A DNA stretch of 54,924 nucleotides from Marinifilum sp. GTDB lineage: Bacteria > Bacteroidota > Bacteroidia > Bacteroidales > CG2-30-32-10. The stretch is taken from positions 1-54,924 of the forward strand of contig DYDE01000006.1 of the NCBI GenBank assembly GCA_020718065.1. The letters run 5' to 3'. The notes beneath the pieces were generated by a model, which searched no databases, had not been told where the DNA came from, and worked only from the letters and a program-made list of their open reading frames with translations. Shown here piece by piece: positions 4,246-54,924 of the stretch (positions are counted from its first letter, which is position 1; each line of letters opens with the position of its first letter). Both the position numbers and the translations under genes were made by a program.

Positions 4246-4327
4246 TTTTAAAGTTGAATTAAATAAATAGCTTTAAGAATAAGAATGATAACCTAATATT
4301 TATCATCATAAATTAAAATCCAACAAT

Positions 4328-5029
4328 ATGAAAAAAACAACATTAACAATAGTAATGTTTTCCATTTTTATTTCAATTTCGTTTTCACAAAAGTGGAACA
4401 CAATGATTGATCTTGGTGATATGGCTATTAAAACAACCCATTCCCATAATGAAATGATAAACTCAGTGAACAATTCAACTGTAGAAGGTAGTATGTTTCT
4501 TTACGATGATTTTCGCCCAGGCAATTTGATTATAAAAGGAGATACGCTGATCGAAGGAATTAAATTTCGTTATAACATTTATTCAAAACAGATGGAAATG
4601 GTTGTCAATAATGACACTTTGGCGCTTATTCGACCTGAAAAAGTAAAAAATATATATTTCGATCGCAAATCATTTATCTATACTGCTTATGAGGAGAAAA
4701 ATAAAATAGAATTGGACTATTTTCAGGTACTATCTGAGGGTAAATCCAACTTATTATTGCATTACAAAGTTATTTTTATCCCAAAGAACCCACCAGCAAC
4801 TCCTTATAGTACAGGCAATCCAAATGATCAATTAGAACAATCAAAAAATTATTTTTACCAGAAAGGTGATAAACCTGCTATTCTTTTAAGTAAAAAGTCA
4901 AAAAACATTTTAGAATCATTATCAGATAAAAAAACAGAAGTTGACAAATATATAAAGGAAAAAGATCTAAAAGCTACTAATGAGAAAGACATGGTAGAAA
5001 TATTTCAATATTATAATTCTTTAAAATAG
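4328..5029 (+). CDS. Secreted hypothetical protein (Bacteroidota GS-FLYDDF..G / RYNIY family)
   Basis: 233-aa ORF with signal peptide. Confidence 0.7.
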   Translation: MKKTTLTIVMFSIFISISFSQKWNTMIDLGDMAIKTTHSHNEMINSVNNSTVEGSMFLYDDFRPGNLIIKGDTLIEGIKFRYNIYSKQMEMVVNNDTLALIRPEKVKNIYFDRKSFIYTAYEEKNKIELDYFQVLSEGKSNLLLHYKVIFIPKNPPATPYSTGNPNDQLEQSKNYFYQKGDKPAILLSKKSKNILESLSDKKTEVDKYIKEKDLKATNEKDMVEIFQYYNSLK

Positions 5030-5244
5030 CATTAAATTAGTATTTAAAATTTTTTTAGAAATTTTTTAATTGATTGTAAATTATAGATATAACAAATATT
5101 AGTGTTTTGTAATAAAACATTAAGTTGGTTATATCTATAGGTTTAGAATATAAGAATAAGTTTACTTTACCACTATTTTATAAATAGCAATTATTGCTAT
5201 TAAAATTATATGAAATTTTTTTAAATCTTTGCATTACCTTATAA

Positions 5245-5277
5245 AAAAAGAGGCTGTTTTTAAAACAACCTCTTTTT
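5245..5277. terminator. Bidirectional intrinsic terminator
   Basis: aaaaagaggctgtttt-t-aaaacaacctcttttt hairpin between convergent genes. Confidence 0.8.
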
Positions 5278-5298
5278 GATTAAATGGAATGATAAATA

Positions 5299-6837
5299 TT
5301 AATTACCACCATCCCACCATACTTTTGTAATTAAATCATCTCCACCCATACGAGATTTAGCCGCACTCCAACTATTAGCATTTAGTGTTTGCTCTTGGAT
5401 TGGATATGACATTCTTTTAGGTAAATCTGAACCACTACTTACCAAAGGAGTGAATGTAATTTCAGTAAGATCTGGTTTAATATAAGTTATTTCACTAGGA
5501 CGAACCAATGTTTTAGGATAGCCGGTTCTACGGTATTCTATCCATGGTTGATGAGCCTGAAAAAACAAAGCAATATATTTCTGTGTGGCAACATTTTCTG
5601 CATTAGCAGCAGGTAATGAAGTCAGATAAGCAGTAATATCAGCTGACGAGATGTTGTAATATGTCATTGAAGCAGTTACGCCATTAATATAATGTGTTTG
5701 ATCCCATCCATTAACCTCAGATAAAATAAACTCTACTTCGGCATAATCCATAAAAATACAACTATAATTTATTGAACGGAATAATGATCCGGGATAAGAT
5801 ACATTTCTTTTACCAATTGCACGAGTATCTGCATCTCCCATTCCATATGGCATACCAGTCCAAACAGTATCATTACTTAAGGTTGGAGATGCATAGATAT
5901 ATAATCTAGGATCTTCAATGCCAAAAAATGGATTACTATTATTTCTTCCAGTTGTTGGTATTGGATTTAGACCTTTAAGTAGATCAATAAATTGTTTCGT
6001 TACAGCAAAATCTGTACGATTGCTTACATAATATGCTCTATACCAAGGTGCTTGATTAGGATCTCCATCAAGGTATGTAAATCTAGCATTATCTAAATTA
6101 CTAGTAAAAACGCCAGCAGTAATAGCTTCATTAATATATGTCATATAATTAGAATTAACTTTTAACATTCTTAAAGCAACTCTTAATTTTAAAGAATTTG
6201 CAAACTTTTTCCAATTTGCTGCATCTCCATTATAAATTATGTCCCCTTGAGTAAATGCAGGAACTGTATCTATAATTTGGTTTGATGCTTCTGTTAATTC
6301 TTTAATTAGATCAGTATAGATATCTTTTTGATTATCATACTTTGGGGTAGGTTTATTAATTGGATCAAAAGCTTCTGTATAAGGAATATCACCATAAATA
6401 TCAGTTAAGTTTTGAAAAACCCATGCTTTCAAAATTCTTGCAGCTGCAATCTGATTATTATTATTTCCATATTTTGAATTAATAGCCTTTGTTTTTGGAT
6501 CTGTATTTAACCTAATAACTTCATTTAAATCAGTCATAATGTTGTATATATTAATCCAATAAGAATTATTAATATTTTCTCTGAAAGCATATCTGTCTTC
6601 AGAAGTATAATTGTTTTGAGAAATTTGCTGATCTAGCAAATATCCAAAACGACCACCCCACCATTCATCTCTCATATTATCCATAAGTTGTTTTTGTGCA
6701 TTTGTCATCAATGAATATGCTGGGACGTCAACTGGGCTGTTAGGATTTATATTGGTGTCCTCAAAATCTTTCGTACAGCCTACTACAATAAATGATATTA
6801 TTGCAAATAGAATTAATATTTTATTTAATGTTTTCAT
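5299..6837 (-). CDS. susD: SusD/RagB family nutrient-binding lipoprotein
   Basis: Lipobox VVGC-TKDF; LTDIYGDIPY, WKKFANSLKLR and WIEYRRTGYP motifs; directly downstream of SusC. Confidence 0.93.
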   Translation of the reverse strand: MKTLNKILILFAIISFIVVGCTKDFEDTNINPNSPVDVPAYSLMTNAQKQLMDNMRDEWWGGRFGYLLDQQISQNNYTSEDRYAFRENINNSYWINIYNIMTDLNEVIRLNTDPKTKAINSKYGNNNNQIAAARILKAWVFQNLTDIYGDIPYTEAFDPINKPTPKYDNQKDIYTDLIKELTEASNQIIDTVPAFTQGDIIYNGDAANWKKFANSLKLRVALRMLKVNSNYMTYINEAITAGVFTSNLDNARFTYLDGDPNQAPWYRAYYVSNRTDFAVTKQFIDLLKGLNPIPTTGRNNSNPFFGIEDPRLYIYASPTLSNDTVWTGMPYGMGDADTRAIGKRNVSYPGSLFRSINYSCIFMDYAEVEFILSEVNGWDQTHYINGVTASMTYYNISSADITAYLTSLPAANAENVATQKYIALFFQAHQPWIEYRRTGYPKTLVRPSEITYIKPDLTEITFTPLVSSGSDLPKRMSYPIQEQTLNANSWSAAKSRMGGDDLITKVWWDGGN

Positions 6838-18793: not shown

Positions 18794-21700
18794 TTATTTT
18801 TTCTTCATAGGTAATGCAGCTTCTTTTTTTGCTTTTCTGCGTTCTTTCCACATAAGTAAATCGTAAGCAATTGGAGAAGCATTTAATACAGATGAATAAG
18901 TACCAACTGCAATACCAATAAGTAATGCAAATGTAAATCCTCTGATAACTTCACCACCAAATATAAACATTACAAGTAAAACCATAAATGTAATACCTGA
19001 AGTATTTAAAGTACGTCCTAATGTACTATTAATTGCCTCATTCATATTTGTTTTAAGATCTCTTTTTGGGTATAAAATGGTATATTCACGAATTCTGTCA
19101 AAGATAATAACCGAGTCCATAATAGAATAACCAATAATAGTAAGAATAGCTGCTATAAAATGTTGGTCAACATCCAGACTAAATGGTAGTATGCCATAGA
19201 ATAGTGAAAACACTGTAATTGTAATAAAAGTATCGTGGAATAGAGAAATTACACCACCAAGACCCCATTGCCATTTTTTAAATCGTATTGCAATATATAT
19301 AAAAATAATTAAAAGAGCAAACAATACAGCAAAATAGGAATTAACTAATAAACTGTATGCAATGGTAGGTTCAATTTTTTGAGAACTTAATTTACCTAAA
19401 GTTTTAGTTTCTGAATGTCCAAGAAAATCGTTTAATGAAATATTATTTGTATATAATGGTTTAAGTCCCTCGTATAATTTGGAATCTACAATAGAATCCG
19501 CAGCATTTGATTTATCTTTAATCATGAAAGATGTGGTAATCTTCACTTGATTACTAGGTCCAAATGTTTTTACTTCAGGCTCTGTACCATATACTTTTCC
19601 CAAAGCAATTCTAATATCATCAGTTCGAACTTCTTTGTCAAATCTTACAATATAAGATCTTCCTCCAAGAAAGTCAATACCATAACTTACTCCTCTGGTT
19701 GATAAAGAAACCATCCCAATTACAACAACAGATAATGAAATAACGTAATAAAATTTTCTAACCCCAATAAAATCTATATTGATTTTGGTAAGAAAACTTT
19801 TTGTCATTTTGTTCCATACGTTTATTTCTATATTTTTATCCATCATCCAGATAAAAATTAAACGGGTAATAAATATAGCACAGAACATTGAACTCAAGAT
19901 ACCAATGATTAATGTGGTAGCAAAGCCTTGTATAGGGCCAGAACCAAATATATAAAGCACAATTGCAGTTAATAAAGTAGTAACATTACTGTCAATAATA
20001 GAAGACATCGCATGTCGGTACCCATCATTGATAGCAAGTCTCATCCCTTTCCCTATTCTTATTTCCTCTCGAATTCGTTCATAGATAATTACGTTTTTAT
20101 CGACATCCATACCAAGAGTAAGAACAATACCAGCAATACCAGGTAAAGTTAGAACAGCTCCTAATGAAGCTAAGATTCCAAAAACAAAGAACATATTAAC
20201 AAATAGAGCGATGTTTGCAACCATTCCTGCTCTGTTATAATAAAAAATCATATATACCATAGTAAGTATAAAAGCTATGATAAATGACCACAAACCAGCA
20301 TTAATCGCTTCTTTTCCAAGAGTTGGTCCAACAACTTCTTCCTGTACAATACGGGCAGTTGCAGGAAGTTTTCCTGATTTAAGAACATTTGCTAAATCTT
20401 TTGCTTCTTCTAATGTAAATCCACCTGTAATTTGTGAAGATCCATTAGGAATTTCACTTTGAACTGTAGGATGAGAATATACAAAATTGTCAAGTACAAT
20501 TGCAATACTGCGTTTGTCTTGGCTTGCTATTGAAGTCATATCTTTCCATATACGAGCTCCTTCATTGTTCATTCTCATGGAAATCTCATTACCACCGTTT
20601 TGTCCAAAATCTTGGCGCGCATCGGTTACAACTTCACCAGTTAATTTTGGTTGGTTGCTGTTTTTAGGAAAACGCAATGCAACTAAACTAAGTGTAGTTA
20701 CACCTTCTCCTTCTGGTTTTATAGACCAAGCTAATTTTAAATCTCTTGGAAGTAATGATTTTACATAGCTTTCGTTTAACATTTTATTAACGATACTTGT
20801 ATCTCTAACTTCGCATTGACCTAAAACTGGGCCTCTCATTGGAATAACATTGCCTGCCTGATCTTTTGTTATAGAAGGTTTCAGGTAAAAGAATAATGGA
20901 TGATCTTTTACTGAATTTTCATTATTTTTTGTTAAGGAAGTAGAGTCTGTTTTGTTTGAAGCTTTGTCTATAAGTGAATTTGTTTTTGTAGTGTCGGTCT
21001 TCGTCTTAGTAATTGTGTCTTTAGAAATATTTATAGTATCTTTTTTTAAGGTATCAGTAACAAAAAAACGATCTTTAAGAACTTTATCAACTTGTACCAT
21101 ATAAGTGTACATTTCATGAAATTCATAAGTTTCCCAAAATTCGAGTTTAGCACTACCTTGCAATAGTTTACGAACACGTTCTGGCTCTTTTATACCTGGT
21201 AATTCAACAAGTATTCTGCCGGCAGTAGAAAGTTTTTGAATGTTTGGTTGAGTAACCCCAAAACGATCGATACGGGTTTTAAGAATGTTGTATGTTCTGT
21301 CAATTGCATCGTTTGATTCATCAGAAATCATCTTTAGAATCTCTTCATTATTAGGTTTACGATTTAAACTTTTTTCAAGTTCAGCAACTTTATTTTTCAT
21401 ACTGAATCCAAATATTGCCATTAATTGAGCATTTGGATCAACTTCTTTGAAAGACTCACCGAAAAGTGTTACAAAATCTTTGGTGCTGTTTTTTTGTTTT
21501 TCAATAGCCAGCGTCATCGCTTTATTAAATGTAACGTCTTTGCTATTACCCGATAAAGCTCTTATGATTTCAGGAACAGAGACTTCCAGAGTAACATTCA
21601 TACCACCTTTTAAGTCAAGACCTAAGTTTATTTCTCTTTGTTTACAATCTTTATAAGTGTATTTTCTTACCAAGATATTAAAAACAACCTCATTTTGCAT

Positions 21701-45588: not shown

Positions 45589-45994
45589 TATTATCTTATA
45601 TTAGAAGACCATTTTTTTTAAGTAAAAGTAGATATGTTACAGCTAGTAATAACATTATCAAAAGCAATCAAAGCCAACCTAATTTGGCTGACTAACCTTA
45701 CTTTTAATAAATATTGTTTTCCCCACAAATTCCTCCATTTTCAAATTTCAATCAAATTTCAACTAAATTTCCACAAAAAACAAAAAAAACCGTTTGTTTT
45801 TTCTCTAAAATCATTTAAAATGCCCTCATCTAAACAAAGAGTTTTGTTTTTTATAAAAACCAAGCATTCATTAAGCAATTAATTTAAAGCATATTGCATC
45901 ACATATTCAAATAAAACTATTGCATCCTGAAAATAAAAAAGCTAAAATTTGAATCTTTTAACAAACTGTAAAGAAATTGAACGTCAATGTTTAG

Positions 45995-46620
45995 TCTGGT
46001 ATTTTTCCCAGAAAACATTTTGGCGTAAGAATTTGTTCTGGCATTTTGCCAGGAAGAATATTGACGTAAGAATTTGTTCTGGCGTTTCGCCAGGAAGAAT
46101 ATTGACGTACGAATTTGTTCTGGCATTTTGCCAGGAAGAATATTGACGTAAGAATTTGTTCTGGCGTTTCGCCAGGAAGAATATTGACGTACGAATTTGT
46201 TCTGGCATTTTGCCAGGAAGAATATTGACGTAAGAATTTGTTCTGGCATTTTGCCAGGAAGAATATTGACGTAAGAATTTGTTCCAGTGTTTCGCTGTGA
46301 AGAATTTTGACGTAGGATTTTATTCCAGCGTTTCGCTGTGAAGAATTTTGACGTAGGATTTTGTTCCAGCATTTCGCTGTGAAGAATATTGACGTAAGAT
46401 TTTGTTCCAGCATTTCGCTGTGAAGAATTTTGATGTAGGATTTTATTCCAGCGTTTCGCTGTGAAGAATATTGACGTAGGAATTTGTTCCAGCGTTTCAC
46501 TGTGAAGAATATTGATGCAAGAATTTGTTCCAGCGTTTCGCCGGGAAGAATTTTGGCGTGAGAATTTGTTCCGGCTTTTCGCCGGGAAACATTTTGGCGT
46601 AGAAATTTGTTCCGGCGTTT
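45995..46620. repeat. 41-bp tandem array, ~15 units, hairpin plus second dyad per unit
   Basis: Units begin 46036, 46077, 46118 ... 46569, 46610; consensus ttctggc(a/g)ttt(t/c)gccaggaagaatattgacgtaagaatttg. Confidence 0.95.
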
Positions 46621-50639: not shown

Positions 50640-51151
50640 TTTTCTTTGAGTTAAGATTTTTTTAATTTATTGCTATCGTTTTGGCGTTGGATAAAGTTGG
50701 CGATTTCGAAGCACATAACTGTCTGTTGGTGATGAATTTGATACGAAGTAAGAACTTACACTTTCTATAAAAGTTTATAGATTAATACTAAAACCCTGAT
50801 ACAAATTTACATTTTTATTTTAAACCTAAAATAACATTACATTTGTTGCCATAGGACGAAGCTTAAATGAGTTATGCTGGAGAGTAACTCATCAGGAATA
50901 AATCCTCCGACGATGGAATAAATTCATTTTTAAGGATTGGCTTGTGTTAGGCTTTTTTTCTTTATACTCTCTGCAATTATATTAACTATCATTCTTTTTC
51001 TTTAATAATTTTCACTATATACTTTCTATAACAATTGTTTTTAGTTTATAAATACGAAAGCTGACTGTTACTGCTACTGTTTTAAAAGCAAAATGCTTTA
51101 CAAATAATAATAAAACAATTGTTTACCTTAACGTTATACAAAAAATGGTAT

Positions 51152-51251
51152 TTTTGGAGTTTCACCAGAAAGAATATTGATGTAAGAATTTGTTCTGGCA
51201 TTTCGCCAGAAAGAATATTGACGTAAGAATTTGTTCTGGTGTTTCGCCAGA
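51152..51251. repeat. Satellite of the 41-bp repeat (2.5 units)
   Basis: Units at 51152, 51193, 51234; same orientation and sequence as the 45995-46620 array. Confidence 0.9.
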
Positions 51252-51292: not shown

Positions 51293-53401
51293 TTATTTAA
51301 TTTCAGGAATCAACTCTTTCTTTATAATTGGTTCCTGAGGAACAGGTGTGTAATTTATTTTGGTTCCATCCCACCACATCGGTTGTGCTGCGTTTTTTGT
51401 ATCACTTTCGTTAAACATAAAATTATTTAAATTCTTGTCGAATTTCGTATCCATTATTTCAACTGGATTGTTTGGATTTTCGTATCCTTTTCGGGTTGCA
51501 ACAGCTATCCAGGTAAAAACAACATTTGATTTTCCGTCATTATTTTCAGCTACCGAAAATCCATCTCCCTTGATTTCCTCTATATAAATACTGTTTGACT
51601 TTCCTATTGGAGTAACGGTAACAATAATAGGATCCTTATCAGAAATCATGCTTTGGTAATTGGGGTCGAATTTGATCTCTGCTTTCCCATTTACCAATTG
51701 TCCTTTTCCTTTCATATATACATCCACCGTCATGGATGTGGCAACATAGGTAGCAAAACGTTGTTCGCTTCCATTATTGTTTAATTGAGTAATCACCTCA
51801 TTGGTATAAGATTTTCCATCAACATACAAGCTCATTCTATCACCTTTGATGATAGATCCATAAACCTGACCTCTGAACCATGAGCCCATCAGGGAACCAA
51901 CACCTGCAACACCAATACCTGCAGACGTATTTGATTTTCCACCTCCATTTGCATAGGCTGTTGACCCGTAAACACCGTATTTAATGCCAGCACTCGATTT
52001 ATATCCCAATGTTCCCCAATACACTCCATTTACATCACCTCCAAAAACACCGCCACACCGAGTATAATCGTCATAATTAAAGCCACCAACAGCAAAGGAA
52101 TAAACATCGCCATACAAGTTAATTCCAGAAATGGCATTATTAACAGAAGTCGAAGAATAATTCGATCCGTTGTTTTGGCTATCTCTGTCTCTAAAACTCA
52201 TAATGGTAGCTTGTCCGGTCCCAACTGAAGTTAATTGTTTGCGATAAACAAACAATTGAGATCTGGTAAATATTCCGTAATTTATACTTATGCCGGTTCC
52301 GTTGTCCTGAATCAGAGAATTTCCAAGAACAGATCCACCAGTTGTCCATTTTACCATATAATTTGCAGTTCCTGTTCCGGTCACACCAGTAGGAGTTTGC
52401 CAAGAAGCCAATCCACTTGCGTCAGAAGTTAAAATTTTACCATTTCCGGGGGTACCCCCGGTTATTTTTAGCTGACCATTTACTTCTAATTTTGCACCGG
52501 GAGTTGAAGTACCAATTCCCACATTAGCACCATTATCAAAAATAGTAGAAGTTACCAAAGCAGTTCCATTCCATTTGGATATATAGTTTGCTGTATTTGC
52601 TCCAACTTTAGGGTCCAATTCAGTAAAAGAAGTAAGATATCCGGCAAGTGCATGGTTTCCCCAACCATAGGCTGTATTCCAGTTGTTGATATTTGAAGCT
52701 GTTATTCCATTGGCCACGTGTGAAGTAGTCATAGCATCTGTTATACCATAACCTGAAACAGTGGTAGGTTTGTTGGTAAGGTTATTAAAGTGGAGTTGAG
52801 AATTTCCGCCCGTTTGCATATTTGTTTTGGTATAATAATTTGTTGAAACAGTGCTCCAAACAGGATCAGTTTCTGTATAGGATGTTAAATATCCCTCACT
52901 AGCATGATTACCCCAACCATAAGCTGTATTCCAATTGGCAATATTTAAAGCTGGCAGGTTGCTTAAATTATTATAATCTGCGGTTTCGGCTGTTTTTGCA
53001 TTCAGCGAATAAGGTACCGATAGCAATTGATTTGTTCCTGTGATGGTATAATTGGTTCCTCCAGTTGGGTCGGTTTCTGTTTTAATAAAATAGGGACCGT
53101 TTACCCAATTAATTGTAGAAAATCCTGCACCTCCGCCAATTTCAATACCTACCAAACCATTGGCATTGGTTGTTGGGGTTTGGGTTTCGGAATAGACTTC
53201 TGTTCCTGTAGCAGAACCTTGCAGTATGCTAATCTTCATCCCTACACTATGTGAAACAACCAAAGCATTGCTACTATTGCGTATTACTGCCTGGTAGCTC
53301 ATTTTTTGCGGACTTTGCGCCTGGGTAGGTGAAAGGTAAAAGGCAAAAGGTAAAAGTAATATAGCAAGGATCAATCTCAATTGGGTCGTTTTTTTTATCA
53401 T
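51293..53401 (-). CDS. Secreted fibre-like protein: QSPQKMSYQAVIRN..LLSVPY N-module, NWNTAYGWGNHA/ETDP repeats, NVGIGTSTP, Gly-rich beta region, tail-fibre-like C-domain
   Basis: ORF track 51293-53440; Met at 53401 gives a clean signal peptide; motifs typical of Bacteroidota tail-fibre-like proteins. Confidence 0.78.
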   Translation of the reverse strand: MIKKTTQLRLILAILLLPFAFYLSPTQAQSPQKMSYQAVIRNSSNALVVSHSVGMKISILQGSATGTEVYSETQTPTTNANGLVGIEIGGGAGFSTINWVNGPYFIKTETDPTGGTNYTITGTNQLLSVPYSLNAKTAETADYNNLSNLPALNIANWNTAYGWGNHASEGYLTSYTETDPVWSTVSTNYYTKTNMQTGGNSQLHFNNLTNKPTTVSGYGITDAMTTSHVANGITASNINNWNTAYGWGNHALAGYLTSFTELDPKVGANTANYISKWNGTALVTSTIFDNGANVGIGTSTPGAKLEVNGQLKITGGTPGNGKILTSDASGLASWQTPTGVTGTGTANYMVKWTTGGSVLGNSLIQDNGTGISINYGIFTRSQLFVYRKQLTSVGTGQATIMSFRDRDSQNNGSNYSSTSVNNAISGINLYGDVYSFAVGGFNYDDYTRCGGVFGGDVNGVYWGTLGYKSSAGIKYGVYGSTAYANGGGKSNTSAGIGVAGVGSLMGSWFRGQVYGSIIKGDRMSLYVDGKSYTNEVITQLNNNGSEQRFATYVATSMTVDVYMKGKGQLVNGKAEIKFDPNYQSMISDKDPIIVTVTPIGKSNSIYIEEIKGDGFSVAENNDGKSNVVFTWIAVATRKGYENPNNPVEIMDTKFDKNLNNFMFNESDTKNAAQPMWWDGTKINYTPVPQEPIIKKELIPEIK
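52998..53387. repeat. 390-bp exact direct repeat, copy 1 (copy 2 = 54535-54924)
   Basis: Base-by-base identity at offset 1537. Confidence 0.95.
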
Positions 53402-53463
53402 ATTTATTAATTTTATTTTGTTTACATTAATTTTATACATAATTATTACTCATAAATTAACAT

Positions 53464-53494
53464 TTTTTAATGAGTTAGAAAACTCCACTAAAAA
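53464..53494. other. Hairpin immediately 3' of the putative VR/IMH
   Basis: ttttta-at-gagtt-agaa-aactc-c-ac-taaaaa (plus strand). Confidence 0.55.
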
Positions 53495-53495
53495 G

Positions 53496-53625
53496 TTAAA
53501 AAGCCCGAACAGCACGCACACGGAAAGTGGTGGCCTTAAGGTAGAGGCTCTGGCCGCCAGAGCCGAAGTTCCATACCCACGCGTCGTTGTCATTGTATTC
53601 GCTGGAACTCCAATAGTAGACATTA
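53496..53625 (-). other. Putative DGR variable region (VR) with GC-rich 3' IMH-like end
   Basis: YYWSSSEY..AW..NF..G....K....VRAVRAF; 67 of 120 nt are G/C and 19 of 40 codons end in C, in an AT-rich gene. Confidence 0.75.
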
Positions 53626-54924
53626 GCAAAACCACCAACCGCAACTTTTTGAGCATATAATAAATTTAGTTCATATTTTGAAGGCAAGTACCAATCGCCA
53701 TAAGTCACGCCACCAACAGTTACTGAATAATCGGCACAAACTTTTGCTGCAAAATTGCCAGGTTGGTTATCTGCCATTTGGGTAGCTATTATTATAGCTG
53801 TATTCATTGCACCTGCATACAATCCGTCTCCGGTTGTACCTGTATATCTATTCCTGGTATTGTACCATTGTATACCTCCACTTTGGTCAGTTGTAGCTGC
53901 TATTAATCCGTGTTGCCCTGTGGCATCTAACCAAAATATAATACCACCTTGGTAGTTTTGACCAATAGTAAGAGTTGTTGCTCCTGTTACATTTACCACA
54001 TAAGGGCTTGCAGTTGTTCCACTTCCTGTTATATTTATATTAGTTCCGGAATTTATTTTGGTCTCGGAGCCATCAGTAGTTGGTTTATTGCTTAAGTCGT
54101 TGTAGTTGCCACTGGTTGCAATGGTTGCAAATGTTGGTTTTTCTGTTACATCAGTCCATGATGGAACCCAAGATATTGGGCGATATAAACCTGCATGATT
54201 ACCCCAGCCATAAGTGGTATTCCAATTGGTAATATTTGTTGCGCTTATTCCATTAGCAGGATGAGCTGTAAAGATAGGGTCTGTTTCTGTAAAACTTGTT
54301 AAATATCCAGCAGCAGCATGATTTCCCCAACTATAAGCAGTGTTCCAGTTAGAAATATTTGTAGCACTAATTCCGTTAGCAGGCGATGCTTCAAAGAGGG
54401 GATCAGTTTCTGTATAACTAGTCAAGTATCCTGCTGAAGCATGATTACCCCATCCATATGCTGTATTCCAATTGGCAATATTTAAGGTGGGCAGGTTGGT
54501 TAAATTATTATAATCTGCGGTTTCAGCAGTTTTGGCATTCAGCGAATAAGGTACCGATAGCAATTGATTTGTTCCTGTGATGGTATAATTGGTTCCTCCA
54601 GTTGGGTCGGTTTCTGTTTTAATAAAATAGGGACCGTTTACCCAATTAATTGTAGAAAATCCTGCACCTCCGCCAATTTCAATACCTACCAAACCATTGG
54701 CATTGGTTGTTGGGGTTTGGGTTTCGGAATAGACTTCTGTTCCTGTAGCAGAACCTTGCAGTATGCTAATCTTCATCCCTACACTATGTGAAACAACCAA
54801 AGCATTGCTACTATTGCGTATTACTGCCTGGTAGCTCATTTTTTGCGGACTTTGCGCCTGGGTAGGTGAAAGGTAAAAGGCAAAAGGTAAAAGTAATATA
54901 GCAAGGATCAATCTCAATTGGGTC
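53496..54924 (-). CDS. Secreted fibre-like protein with C-terminal DUF1566/Lcl (CLec-fold) domain; likely DGR target; 5' end cut by the window edge
   Basis: Same N-module as the neighbour; IGQNYQGGIIF..GQHGLIAA; DWYLPSKYELNLLY; YWSSSE; VRAVRAF. Confidence 0.85.
   Translation of the reverse strand, partial: TQLRLILAILLLPFAFYLSPTQAQSPQKMSYQAVIRNSSNALVVSHSVGMKISILQGSATGTEVYSETQTPTTNANGLVGIEIGGGAGFSTINWVNGPYFIKTETDPTGGTNYTITGTNQLLSVPYSLNAKTAETADYNNLTNLPTLNIANWNTAYGWGNHASAGYLTSYTETDPLFEASPANGISATNISNWNTAYSWGNHAAAGYLTSFTETDPIFTAHPANGISATNITNWNTTYGWGNHAGLYRPISWVPSWTDVTEKPTFATIATSGNYNDLSNKPTTDGSETKINSGTNINITGSGTTASPYVVNVTGATTLTIGQNYQGGIIFWLDATGQHGLIAATTDQSGGIQWYNTRNRYTGTTGDGLYAGAMNTAIIIATQMADNQPGNFAAKVCADYSVTVGGVTYGDWYLPSKYELNLLYAQKVAVGGFANVYYWSSSEYNDNDAWVWNFGSGGQSLYLKATTFRVRAVRAF
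54535..54924. repeat. 390-bp exact direct repeat, copy 2
   Basis: Identical to 52998-53387; runs off the window end. Confidence 0.95.

Follow-up and report, generated by a model that had tools for sequence, protein, structure and literature searches.

The stretch of DNA analysed here, hereafter the window, comprises positions 1-54,924 of contig DYDE01000006.1 (C127, 62,955 nt) in a Marinifilum sp. assembly of 4.08 Mb, which consists of 206 contigs and is 90% complete. At the end of the window two genes, A and B, lie in tandem, head to tail and both on the minus strand, and each encodes a signal peptide, a constant N-terminal module (the N-module), a stalk of tail-fibre repeats and a tip. Their features are as follows, in window coordinates.

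51293-53440 (-): fibre gene A, an open reading frame (ORF) of 715 aa with signal peptide, N-domain, two stalk repeats, Gly-rich region and tailspike-like end
53496-54924+ (-): fibre gene B, open at the window end, full length ~480 aa, with a Pfam Lcl_C domain
52998-53387 (-): exact repeat, copy 1, reaching 53395 when the sequence after the scaffold gap is counted (Logan contig 52998-53395)
54535-54924 (-): exact repeat, copy 2, at an offset of 1537 nt from copy 1
53006-53320 (-): N-domain of A, residues 41-145, a seven-strand beta-sandwich in the AlphaFold2 (AF2) model, with a sub-threshold match to NF053851
54543-54857 (-): N-domain of B, the same domain as in A
52649-52936 (-): stalk of A, two NWNTAYGWGNHA motifs, with PHROG tail-fibre matches
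54192-54473 (-): stalk of B, three NWNT.Y.WGNHA motifs with a period of 41 aa or 123 nt
51296-52303 (-): tip of A, residues 380-715, a Gly-rich part of low model confidence and then a confident beta-rich domain (AF2)
53505-53894 (-): tip of B, an Lcl_C/DUF1566 C-type-lectin-like head (Pfam PF07603, E 4.5e-10)
53496-53615 (-): variable region of the type made by diversity-generating retroelements (DGRs), at the 3' end of B, ending in a conserved GTGCGTGCTGTTCGGGC...TAA stretch

Comparison with B and with P0002, a related organism's orthologue of A, indicates that gene A likely starts at the ATG at 53401-53399 (MIKKTTQLRL), which gives a protein of ~702 aa. The start codon of gene B (MNKKTTQLRL) is found at contig position ~55093, past a scaffold gap: 118 N stand directly after the window, and the 37 nt behind them are a copy of the 37 nt before them. 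The first-pass annotation, which was made from the sequence alone, had expected the window to end inside the repeat because the assembly broke on further copies. In fact the window end is a scaffold joint at the repeat edge, as this would have it, but beyond the gap the contig continues to its full length with B's start codon next and no further copies.

The signal peptides of A and B contain no cysteine and are cut between AQ and SPQ, and the Pfam scan gives no match to the sorting domain Por_Secre_tail (PF18962) at E<=0.01 in either protein, in agreement with the earlier remark that neither carries a lipobox or a type IX secretion system (T9SS) C-terminal domain. The motif NWNTAYGWGNHA occurs twice in the stalk of A and three times in that of B, as had been counted before, with the 123-nt period of B detected by TRF, and both stalks match PHROG 9729, a tail-fibre family (E 9.4e-36 for B and 5.8e-24 for A). 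The tips, which the first-pass annotation took to be unrelated, with a tail-fibre-like end in A and a C-type-lectin domain in B, are so indeed. Residues 573-648 of tip A (51497-51724) match the C-terminal domains of phage tailspikes and tail fibres, the best being the beta-sandwich at the C-terminus of the tailspike of cyanophage Pam1 (Z 10.4, root-mean-square deviation 1.6 A over 70 aligned residues). Foldseek gives E 6.4e-4, and structure comparison finds a weaker resemblance to the ends of pyocin fibres and depolymerases. By sequence, the Pfam scan assigns no family to gene A, no PDB entry matches it below E 0.24, and the Atlas search with its tip returns unnamed clusters only. Tip B passes the Pfam gathering threshold for Lcl_C (40.3 bits against 34.9) and matches PDB entry 8Q4E, the C-terminal domain (CTD) of Legionella Lcl, at E 1.2e-15, which is a trimeric lectin-like head (PMC11162425). 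Lcl as a whole has the same layout, being a trimer of N-terminal surface anchor, stalk and DUF1566 head. Its anchor, however, is an amphipathic helix and its stalk collagen (PMC11162425), in place of which A and B have a beta-sandwich as anchor candidate and a stalk built from tail-fibre repeats. B was considered as an Lcl orthologue and rejected, with 69.7 bits in the NCBIfam equivalog model against a cut-off of 500.

The base domain and the fibre family

The N-domain, of ~105 residues, begins right after the signal-peptide cleavage site, and its AF2 model has seven strands over residues 7-99, with block confidence (pLDDT) of 88-98 over residues 1-100. The first-pass annotation supposed that this constant domain may be an undescribed anchoring or assembly signal. 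It turns out, however, to be a sub-threshold relative of a domain already described, namely the N-domain of the mosaic adhesive trimer (MAT) fibres of Bdellovibrio bacteriovorus, which is represented by the NCBIfam model NF053851 (Bdello_MAT_N). According to Caulton et al. 2024 (PMC10769870), the MAT fibres, presented in that year as one predator's kit for recognising prey, comprise 21 paralogues. In each of them a beta-rich domain of ~130 aa directly follows the signal peptide; the set divides into S74 and non-S74 classes with diverse tips, one class being C-type-lectin-like, and tip swapping is proposed. The same paper says that the N-domain has no PDB homologue, its surface partner being stated as an open question.

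The likeness to this system covers the whole layout, that is, a signal peptide, then a conserved beta-rich N-domain, a tail-fibre-like stalk and a variable tip, in many paralogues of S74 and non-S74 classes that include a C-type-lectin-like tip class. All of 56 aligned N-modules, taken from 31 genomes and one public genome record (L092), match NF053851 at E<=0.01, with a best value of 3.7e-12, and all six copies of our genome do so over profile positions ~3-76, four of the six matching again weakly at ~122-151. Two points nevertheless speak against a close relationship. The scores seen here, ~20-34 bits (A 31.7, B 33, own-genome copies 19.5-30.3), are far below the curated cut-off of 60, which neither A nor B nor the own-genome copies reach, and the fold of the N-domain is a generic immunoglobulin-like sandwich, for which the PDB offers no specific relative (best Z 7.4, TM <=0.45). 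Since all 56 modules match but below the cut-off, the family is better regarded as a distant relative of MAT than as a member as curated; on sequence grounds these proteins are probably distant Bacteroidota counterparts of the Bdellovibrio MAT fibres and not a new kind of fibre. The two systems also differ in several respects. The present family is found in Bacteroidota, with nothing found that points to predation; its proteins are of 480-715 aa against ~1,000 in MAT; its NF053851 scores lie around or under half of the curated cut-off; and here a T9SS-sorted mini-protein stands upstream, and DGR-type tips and an identical tract, which probably arose by conversion, are present.

In our genome six genes carry the N-module (two on C127 and one each on C96, C29, C72 and C60), with about five kinds of tips: Lcl_C in B and in the C72 gene, S74 in the C60 gene, and no Pfam family in A and in the C96 and C29 genes. 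S74 and non-S74 classes thus occur side by side among paralogues with diverse C-terminal tips, just as in MAT. Among 30 related genomes the N-module is present in 23, with up to 28 matches in one of them, and a protein search with the N-module gave at least 7,827 matches among 8,000 candidates scored. A MAT-related design, seen in more than 7,800 database proteins and in up to 28 copies per related genome, therefore appears to be very common in environmental Bacteroidota. The tips of the homologues include S74, collagen, Lcl_C, Fib_succ_major, Collar and TLD, and at least eight tip families are found in the wider family. The first-pass annotation had proposed a family of fibres with a constant N-module and swapped tips, and had named two static copies with no tip variation as the case that would speak against it; what is found instead is a very large family with six copies and about five kinds of tips in this genome alone. 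The exchange is not restricted to one base. Of 81 homologues of tip A only 10 bear this N-module, and most others start with another conserved N-terminal module, which suggests that tips move between base modules over evolutionary time. That second module (consensus ~GVAIN..PD.SAMLDV.S..KG.L.PRM) heads many fibre-like proteins with tip A, including the one at 7719-9503 of contig C167 and most of the tip-A homologues (P0122-P0190), and may be an alternative base. As a further observation, the fibre gene of C29 is followed by three tandem genes of ~208 aa at 4786-6807 of that contig (L020:787-2808), of which the one at 6181-6807 matches Phage Tail Collar (PF07484, E 2e-25) and is resembled, by eye, by its two companions.

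On these grounds we propose that A and B would belong to a very large family, found in Bacteroidota, of secreted surface fibres that resemble phage tail fibres, in which a Sec signal peptide is followed by the ~105-residue beta-sandwich base, a conserved LLSVPY linker, the tail-fibre-repeat stalk and an exchangeable adhesive tip. Tip A would then be a tailspike-like beta-sandwich end, and tip B an Lcl/DUF1566 lectin-like head rewritten by a DGR. The fibres are probably trimeric, by analogy with the S74 and collagen tips of relatives and with the trimeric Lcl-CTD, and they would be displayed on the cell surface.

Fibres of this look could also be the tail fibres of a prophage or a tailocin, in which case the shared module would join the phage baseplate. 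The resemblance is real, because the stalks match PHROG tail-fibre families (9729 in particular), Peptidase_S74 occurs in the C60 gene, tip A matches the C-terminal domains of tailspikes, pyocin fibres and depolymerases with the Pam1 tailspike end as the nearest, and three phage-tail-collar genes follow the C29 paralogue. However, the proteins have no baseplate-attachment domain, and all copies start with a cleavable Sec signal peptide. They are spread over six dispersed chromosomal loci and reach the above-mentioned 28 copies in relatives, as in cellular multi-copy families, and their N-module matches the model of a cellular fibre of Bdellovibrio. The Pfam-scanned neighbours include no phage structural gene either, for they comprise T9SS cargo, a four-helix-bundle protein, a CarboxypepD_reg protein and proteins to which Pfam assigns no family; the scan covered five neighbours (two upstream and three downstream) and found no phage family, with the genes at contig 56158-60406 lying outside it. 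We therefore consider a phage origin of the two genes highly improbable, and keep to the reading as secreted cellular fibres.

The identical tract of genes A and B

Genes A and B have a tract in common. At the offset of 1537 nt, the stretch 52998-53387 matches 54535-54924 in 390 of 390 bases, as was noticed in the first place, and counted across the scaffold gap the tract is ~398 nt long. It spans from the third codon of the likely ORF through the signal peptide to ...LLSVPYSLNA. Outside of it the alignment of A and B shows 22 mismatches and one gap in ~140 nt (~84% identity), so that the overall identity is 95.5% over 538 nt. Between A and the other four paralogues the identity is 73-79% in DNA and 75-87% in protein, the latter over 125 residues of the module, which means that synonymous sites are well diverged in the family; an identical run of 398 nt accordingly requires a recent event, the identity being far beyond chance.

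The reality of this identity was assessed in the Logan contigs of two runs, which are assembled sequences and drop rare variants. In the run that holds 96% of the words of the stretch, positions 52998-53395 are covered by a single contig of 398 nt with a depth of 12.2, while the contigs beside it have depths of 8.62 and 6.67 and end ~30 nt inside the tract. The tract depth in this independent assembly is thus ~1.4-1.8 times that of the flanks, each edge of the tract coincides with a contig break, and the Logan contigs include no other variant of the tract at >=85% identity. Taken together, depth and contig breaks look like an exact repeat with two copies that a de Bruijn graph has collapsed. 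The first-pass annotation, which proposed gene conversion through the constant module, had suggested a count of copies and depth as a check; six N-module genes are found, and the contig depth over the tract is raised.

It could be objected that the perfect identity is an artefact, in which two distinct N-modules were collapsed in a short-read graph and the consensus was placed twice in the scaffold. The fragmentation and incompleteness of the assembly favour such a view, and so does the N-gap with its 37-nt overlapping ends, where the scaffold breaks exactly at the repeat edge. Moreover, at a single position, 53103, the Logan contig departs from the window (A>G), so that at least 397 of the 398 positions, not 398, are vouched for, and as the identity rests on assembled contigs that drop rare variants, its exactness is not provable from these. 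On the other side, the independent assembly gives an unbroken contig over the whole tract, with a depth relative to its neighbours that fits two near-identical copies, and with no alternative contig. Its graph, with two ways in, two ways out and the B-specific piece 53366-54564 between them, resolves linearly only as the tandem order, and copies as diverged as the flanks (~16%) could not have collapsed at k=31. An artefact is therefore an unlikely explanation.

With the tract, its flanks, the Logan contig and the divergence of the paralogues considered together, the best reading is that the identical tract stems from recent gene conversion between the tandem copies A and B, which we hold to be very probable; that it was conversion, as opposed to a very recent duplication, we infer. 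For comparison, P0002 and P0004, both of one related organism, are 92% identical in the N-module and not 100%, which implies that the homogenisation in A and B is recent and local. Conversion over 398 nt would keep the base module uniform between the tandem copies while the tips differ, and the A/B tract would be a clean example of concerted evolution confined to a constant module. As a separate observation, the B-specific piece (53366-54564) has a depth of 6.67 against 8.62 for the A-specific piece (51857-53027), which could be noise or could come from a subpopulation that lost B by recombination between the direct repeats.

The variable region of tip B

The last ~120 nt of gene B are GC-rich, their A fraction being 0.20 as opposed to 0.33 elsewhere in the gene, and they were compared with two DGR templates, both of which come from other organisms. 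Against the template of L212, a metagenome locus, 25 of 46 A positions are changed but only 4 of 70 non-A positions (Fisher p 3.7e-9), and against that of the same-family genome G002, 25 of 46 A and 10 of 71 non-A (Fisher p 7.8e-6). The variable region of L212 itself differs from its own template at 17 of 46 A and 1 of 70 non-A positions. By this adenine-specific signature, the last ~39 codons (~115 nt) of tip B are to be taken as DGR-written. DUF1566 and Fib_succ_major are both reported as DGR target domains in PMC11661182, and both occur among the tips of the present family; a 3' variable region in DUF1566 with adenine-specific differences is likewise what B has in common with the targets described there. 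The locus would hence join modular tip exchange and DGR hypermutation on one scaffold.

Unlike those targets, the variable region here is an orphan. No template was found in our genome, where a BLAST query of the final 205 nt (E<=10) and a search for the 3' 17-mer of B with up to three mismatches gave paralogues only, and no DGR reverse transcriptase (RT) was found in the assembly, in which the PF00078 scan gave a single RT on contig C138 and tblastn with a DGR RT nothing else. A bAvd-type Avd was not found in this genome either. The assembly being only 90% complete, the DGR element may be in the missing 10%, may be on an unbinned mobile element, or may have been lost. Of the earlier claim that one tip is diversified by DGR mutagenesis, the DGR-type variable region hence stands, while present-day mutagenesis finds no backing in an assembly that lacks both template and DGR RT. 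Among the 30 relatives, four have DGR-type RTs (E 1.8e-91 or better); none was found in this genome or its genus-mate. Complete DGRs, consisting of variable region, bAvd-type Avd, AAC-rich template and RT, are present at two loci, L092 and L197. In L092, a Bacteroidota genome record, the mini-protein treated below precedes an N-module fibre which is the DGR target, and L197 belongs to a genome of the same family as ours. At 11 metagenome loci neither N-module nor mini-protein is found in the DNA available, many of these contigs being short.

The 17-mer at the 3' end of B is found elsewhere in our genome only in a gene on contig C92, the final 25 nt of which are the same as in B, and in a scan of the genome collection the same 17-mer ends many DUF1566 genes across phyla; as the matches of that scan are mostly high-GC chance matches, only loci with GC <0.5 were taken (16 matches). 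The C92 gene was considered as a template and rejected, for it differs at synonymous non-A sites and is rather a second gene of the variable-region type. It lies at 4314-5117 of the contig (L024:1315-2118) and encodes 267 aa with a cysteine in the signal peptide (likely a lipoprotein) and Lcl_C, but no N-module; its variable region differs from the G002 template at 21 of 46 A and 8 of 71 non-A positions. The single joint seen among the Logan contigs in this region, at 53520/53595, is this C92 paralogue. The C138 RT was likewise rejected as a DGR RT, because it is frameshifted and group-II-intron-like by its motifs. It is the only RT in the assembly (19072-20320, L009/L010), is split into two overlapping frames and looks like the RT/maturase of a group II intron.

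The T9SS-sorted mini-protein upstream of the fibres

Past the end of the window, upstream of B and on the same strand, two further genes are found, given here in contig coordinates.

55114-55458 (-): 23S_rRNA_IVP four-helix-bundle protein (PF05635), 114 aa, upstream of B (L023:4115-4459)
55516-56004 (-): mini-protein, 162 aa, upstream of the fibres, outside the window, with a T9SS sorting domain (PF18962, 53.6 bits against a threshold of 27)

The search for conserved partner genes beside N-module homologues, which had also been suggested in the first-pass annotation, leads to the second of these. The ~60-residue N-terminal part of the mini-protein has exactly four full-length family copies in the genome, and all four are upstream of fibre loci (C127, C29, C72 and C60). 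In relatives the mini-protein is directly upstream of the fibre at 10 of 11 loci and, in a further set, at 21 of 40; in the 31 partner-bearing loci it abuts the fibre gene with no gene between. The presence or absence of mini-protein and N-module agrees in 27 of 30 relatives (21 with both and 6 with neither), which, as related genomes are not independent, is to be read as linkage and not as statistics. In our own genome, by the way, a 23S_rRNA_IVP gene (PF05635, not of the bAvd type) stands between mini-protein and fibre in three of the four partner-bearing loci, the other two such genes being at C29 8522-8887 and C72 27775-28170.

The proposal which suggests itself is that the mini-protein, fixed on the cell surface by T9SS, is the dock of the base domain. 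Encoded upstream on the same strand with short gaps, it would be sorted to the surface, and the N-domain of the fibre would dock to it. Complex prediction of the N-module with the N-part of the mini-protein supports this weakly, with a score of 0.38 (0.38, 0.40 and 0.34 in the runs), against 0.00 for the best of three controls, and the runs share at least 64% of their contacts. The mark applied is reached by 58 of 80 solved complexes and by 2 of 110 mismatched pairs, but at scores of <=0.60 by 7 of the 80 and by both passing mismatches, so that a pass in this range is expected to be wrong in the majority of cases, except for a pair that was likely a priori. On the strength of this model the dock is a tentative candidate, which we think possible but somewhat doubtful.

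Several observations weigh against it. Of the 40 loci in the further set, 19 have no mini-protein directly upstream, though two of these are cut by a contig end, at least four follow another fibre gene in an array, and three follow another T9SS-sorted ORF. The divergence of the partner follows that of the N-module no more strongly for its N-part (rho 0.68) than for its sorting domain (rho 0.65), and the co-divergence accordingly reflects linkage only. In addition, the way in which a fibre without a sorting domain crosses the outer membrane has no explanation in the proposed scheme. The mini-protein could then be a co-transcribed but independent T9SS cargo, such as a small adhesin or an expression regulator, with the fibre reading still right and the N-domain anchored elsewhere, for example on lipopolysaccharide or an outer-membrane protein. 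The low complex score, with a partner pLDDT of 46-47, and the 19 loci without the gene are in line with this. Bdellovibrio has MAT fibres but is not known to have a T9SS. Against an independent cargo, on the other hand, stand the confinement of the mini-protein family of our genome to fibre loci, its presence in step with the N-module in relatives, and the zero score of all three controls; such a cargo is a possibility that we take seriously without thinking it probable.

If the dock holds, a wider scheme may be imagined, in which the N-part of the mini-protein is the surface dock for the MAT-like base domain and possibly also the carrier that brings a fibre without sorting signal through T9SS, one dock serving a whole array of fibres, with tip shuffling, conversion and DGR as three layers of variation. 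This wider scheme is speculative, and we would call it unlikely as it stands. The overall explanation, that is, a MAT-like fibre family with conversion, a DGR-written tip and docking, seems on balance fairly likely.

The fibre design as such is known from MAT, and what is new here is the T9SS-sorted mini-protein directly upstream of fibre loci. Searches of the literature brought up no publication that describes this Bacteroidota family, a MAT-like fibre of Bacteroidota accompanied by a T9SS mini-protein, or MAT-like fibres written by a DGR, although Supplementary Tables 3 and 4 of PMC10769870, on fibres of other bacteria, may include the family; nor did they bring up one on hitch-hiking through T9SS, where papers were judged by title and abstract. 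The linked T9SS substrate is a directly testable candidate for the missing dock of the MAT-like base. Were it true, the MAT N-domain class would have a named partner in one phylum, and a two-part fibre display would be established in Bacteroidota, and were the carriage through T9SS true as well, it would be the first case of hitch-hiking secretion by this system.

As to the remaining features of the window, scans for sigma-70 promoters and terminators gave no excess over shuffled sequences. Arrays of a 41-nt tandem repeat are found at 46020-46620 (14.7 copies, 89% match) and, just downstream of gene A, at 51160-51251 (2.2 copies), and the long ORFs at 45917-46500 are translations of the array. 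The depth over 51076-51213 in the Logan run is ~91 against ~8 in the flanks, and the 41-nt unit is therefore a high-copy dispersed repeat.

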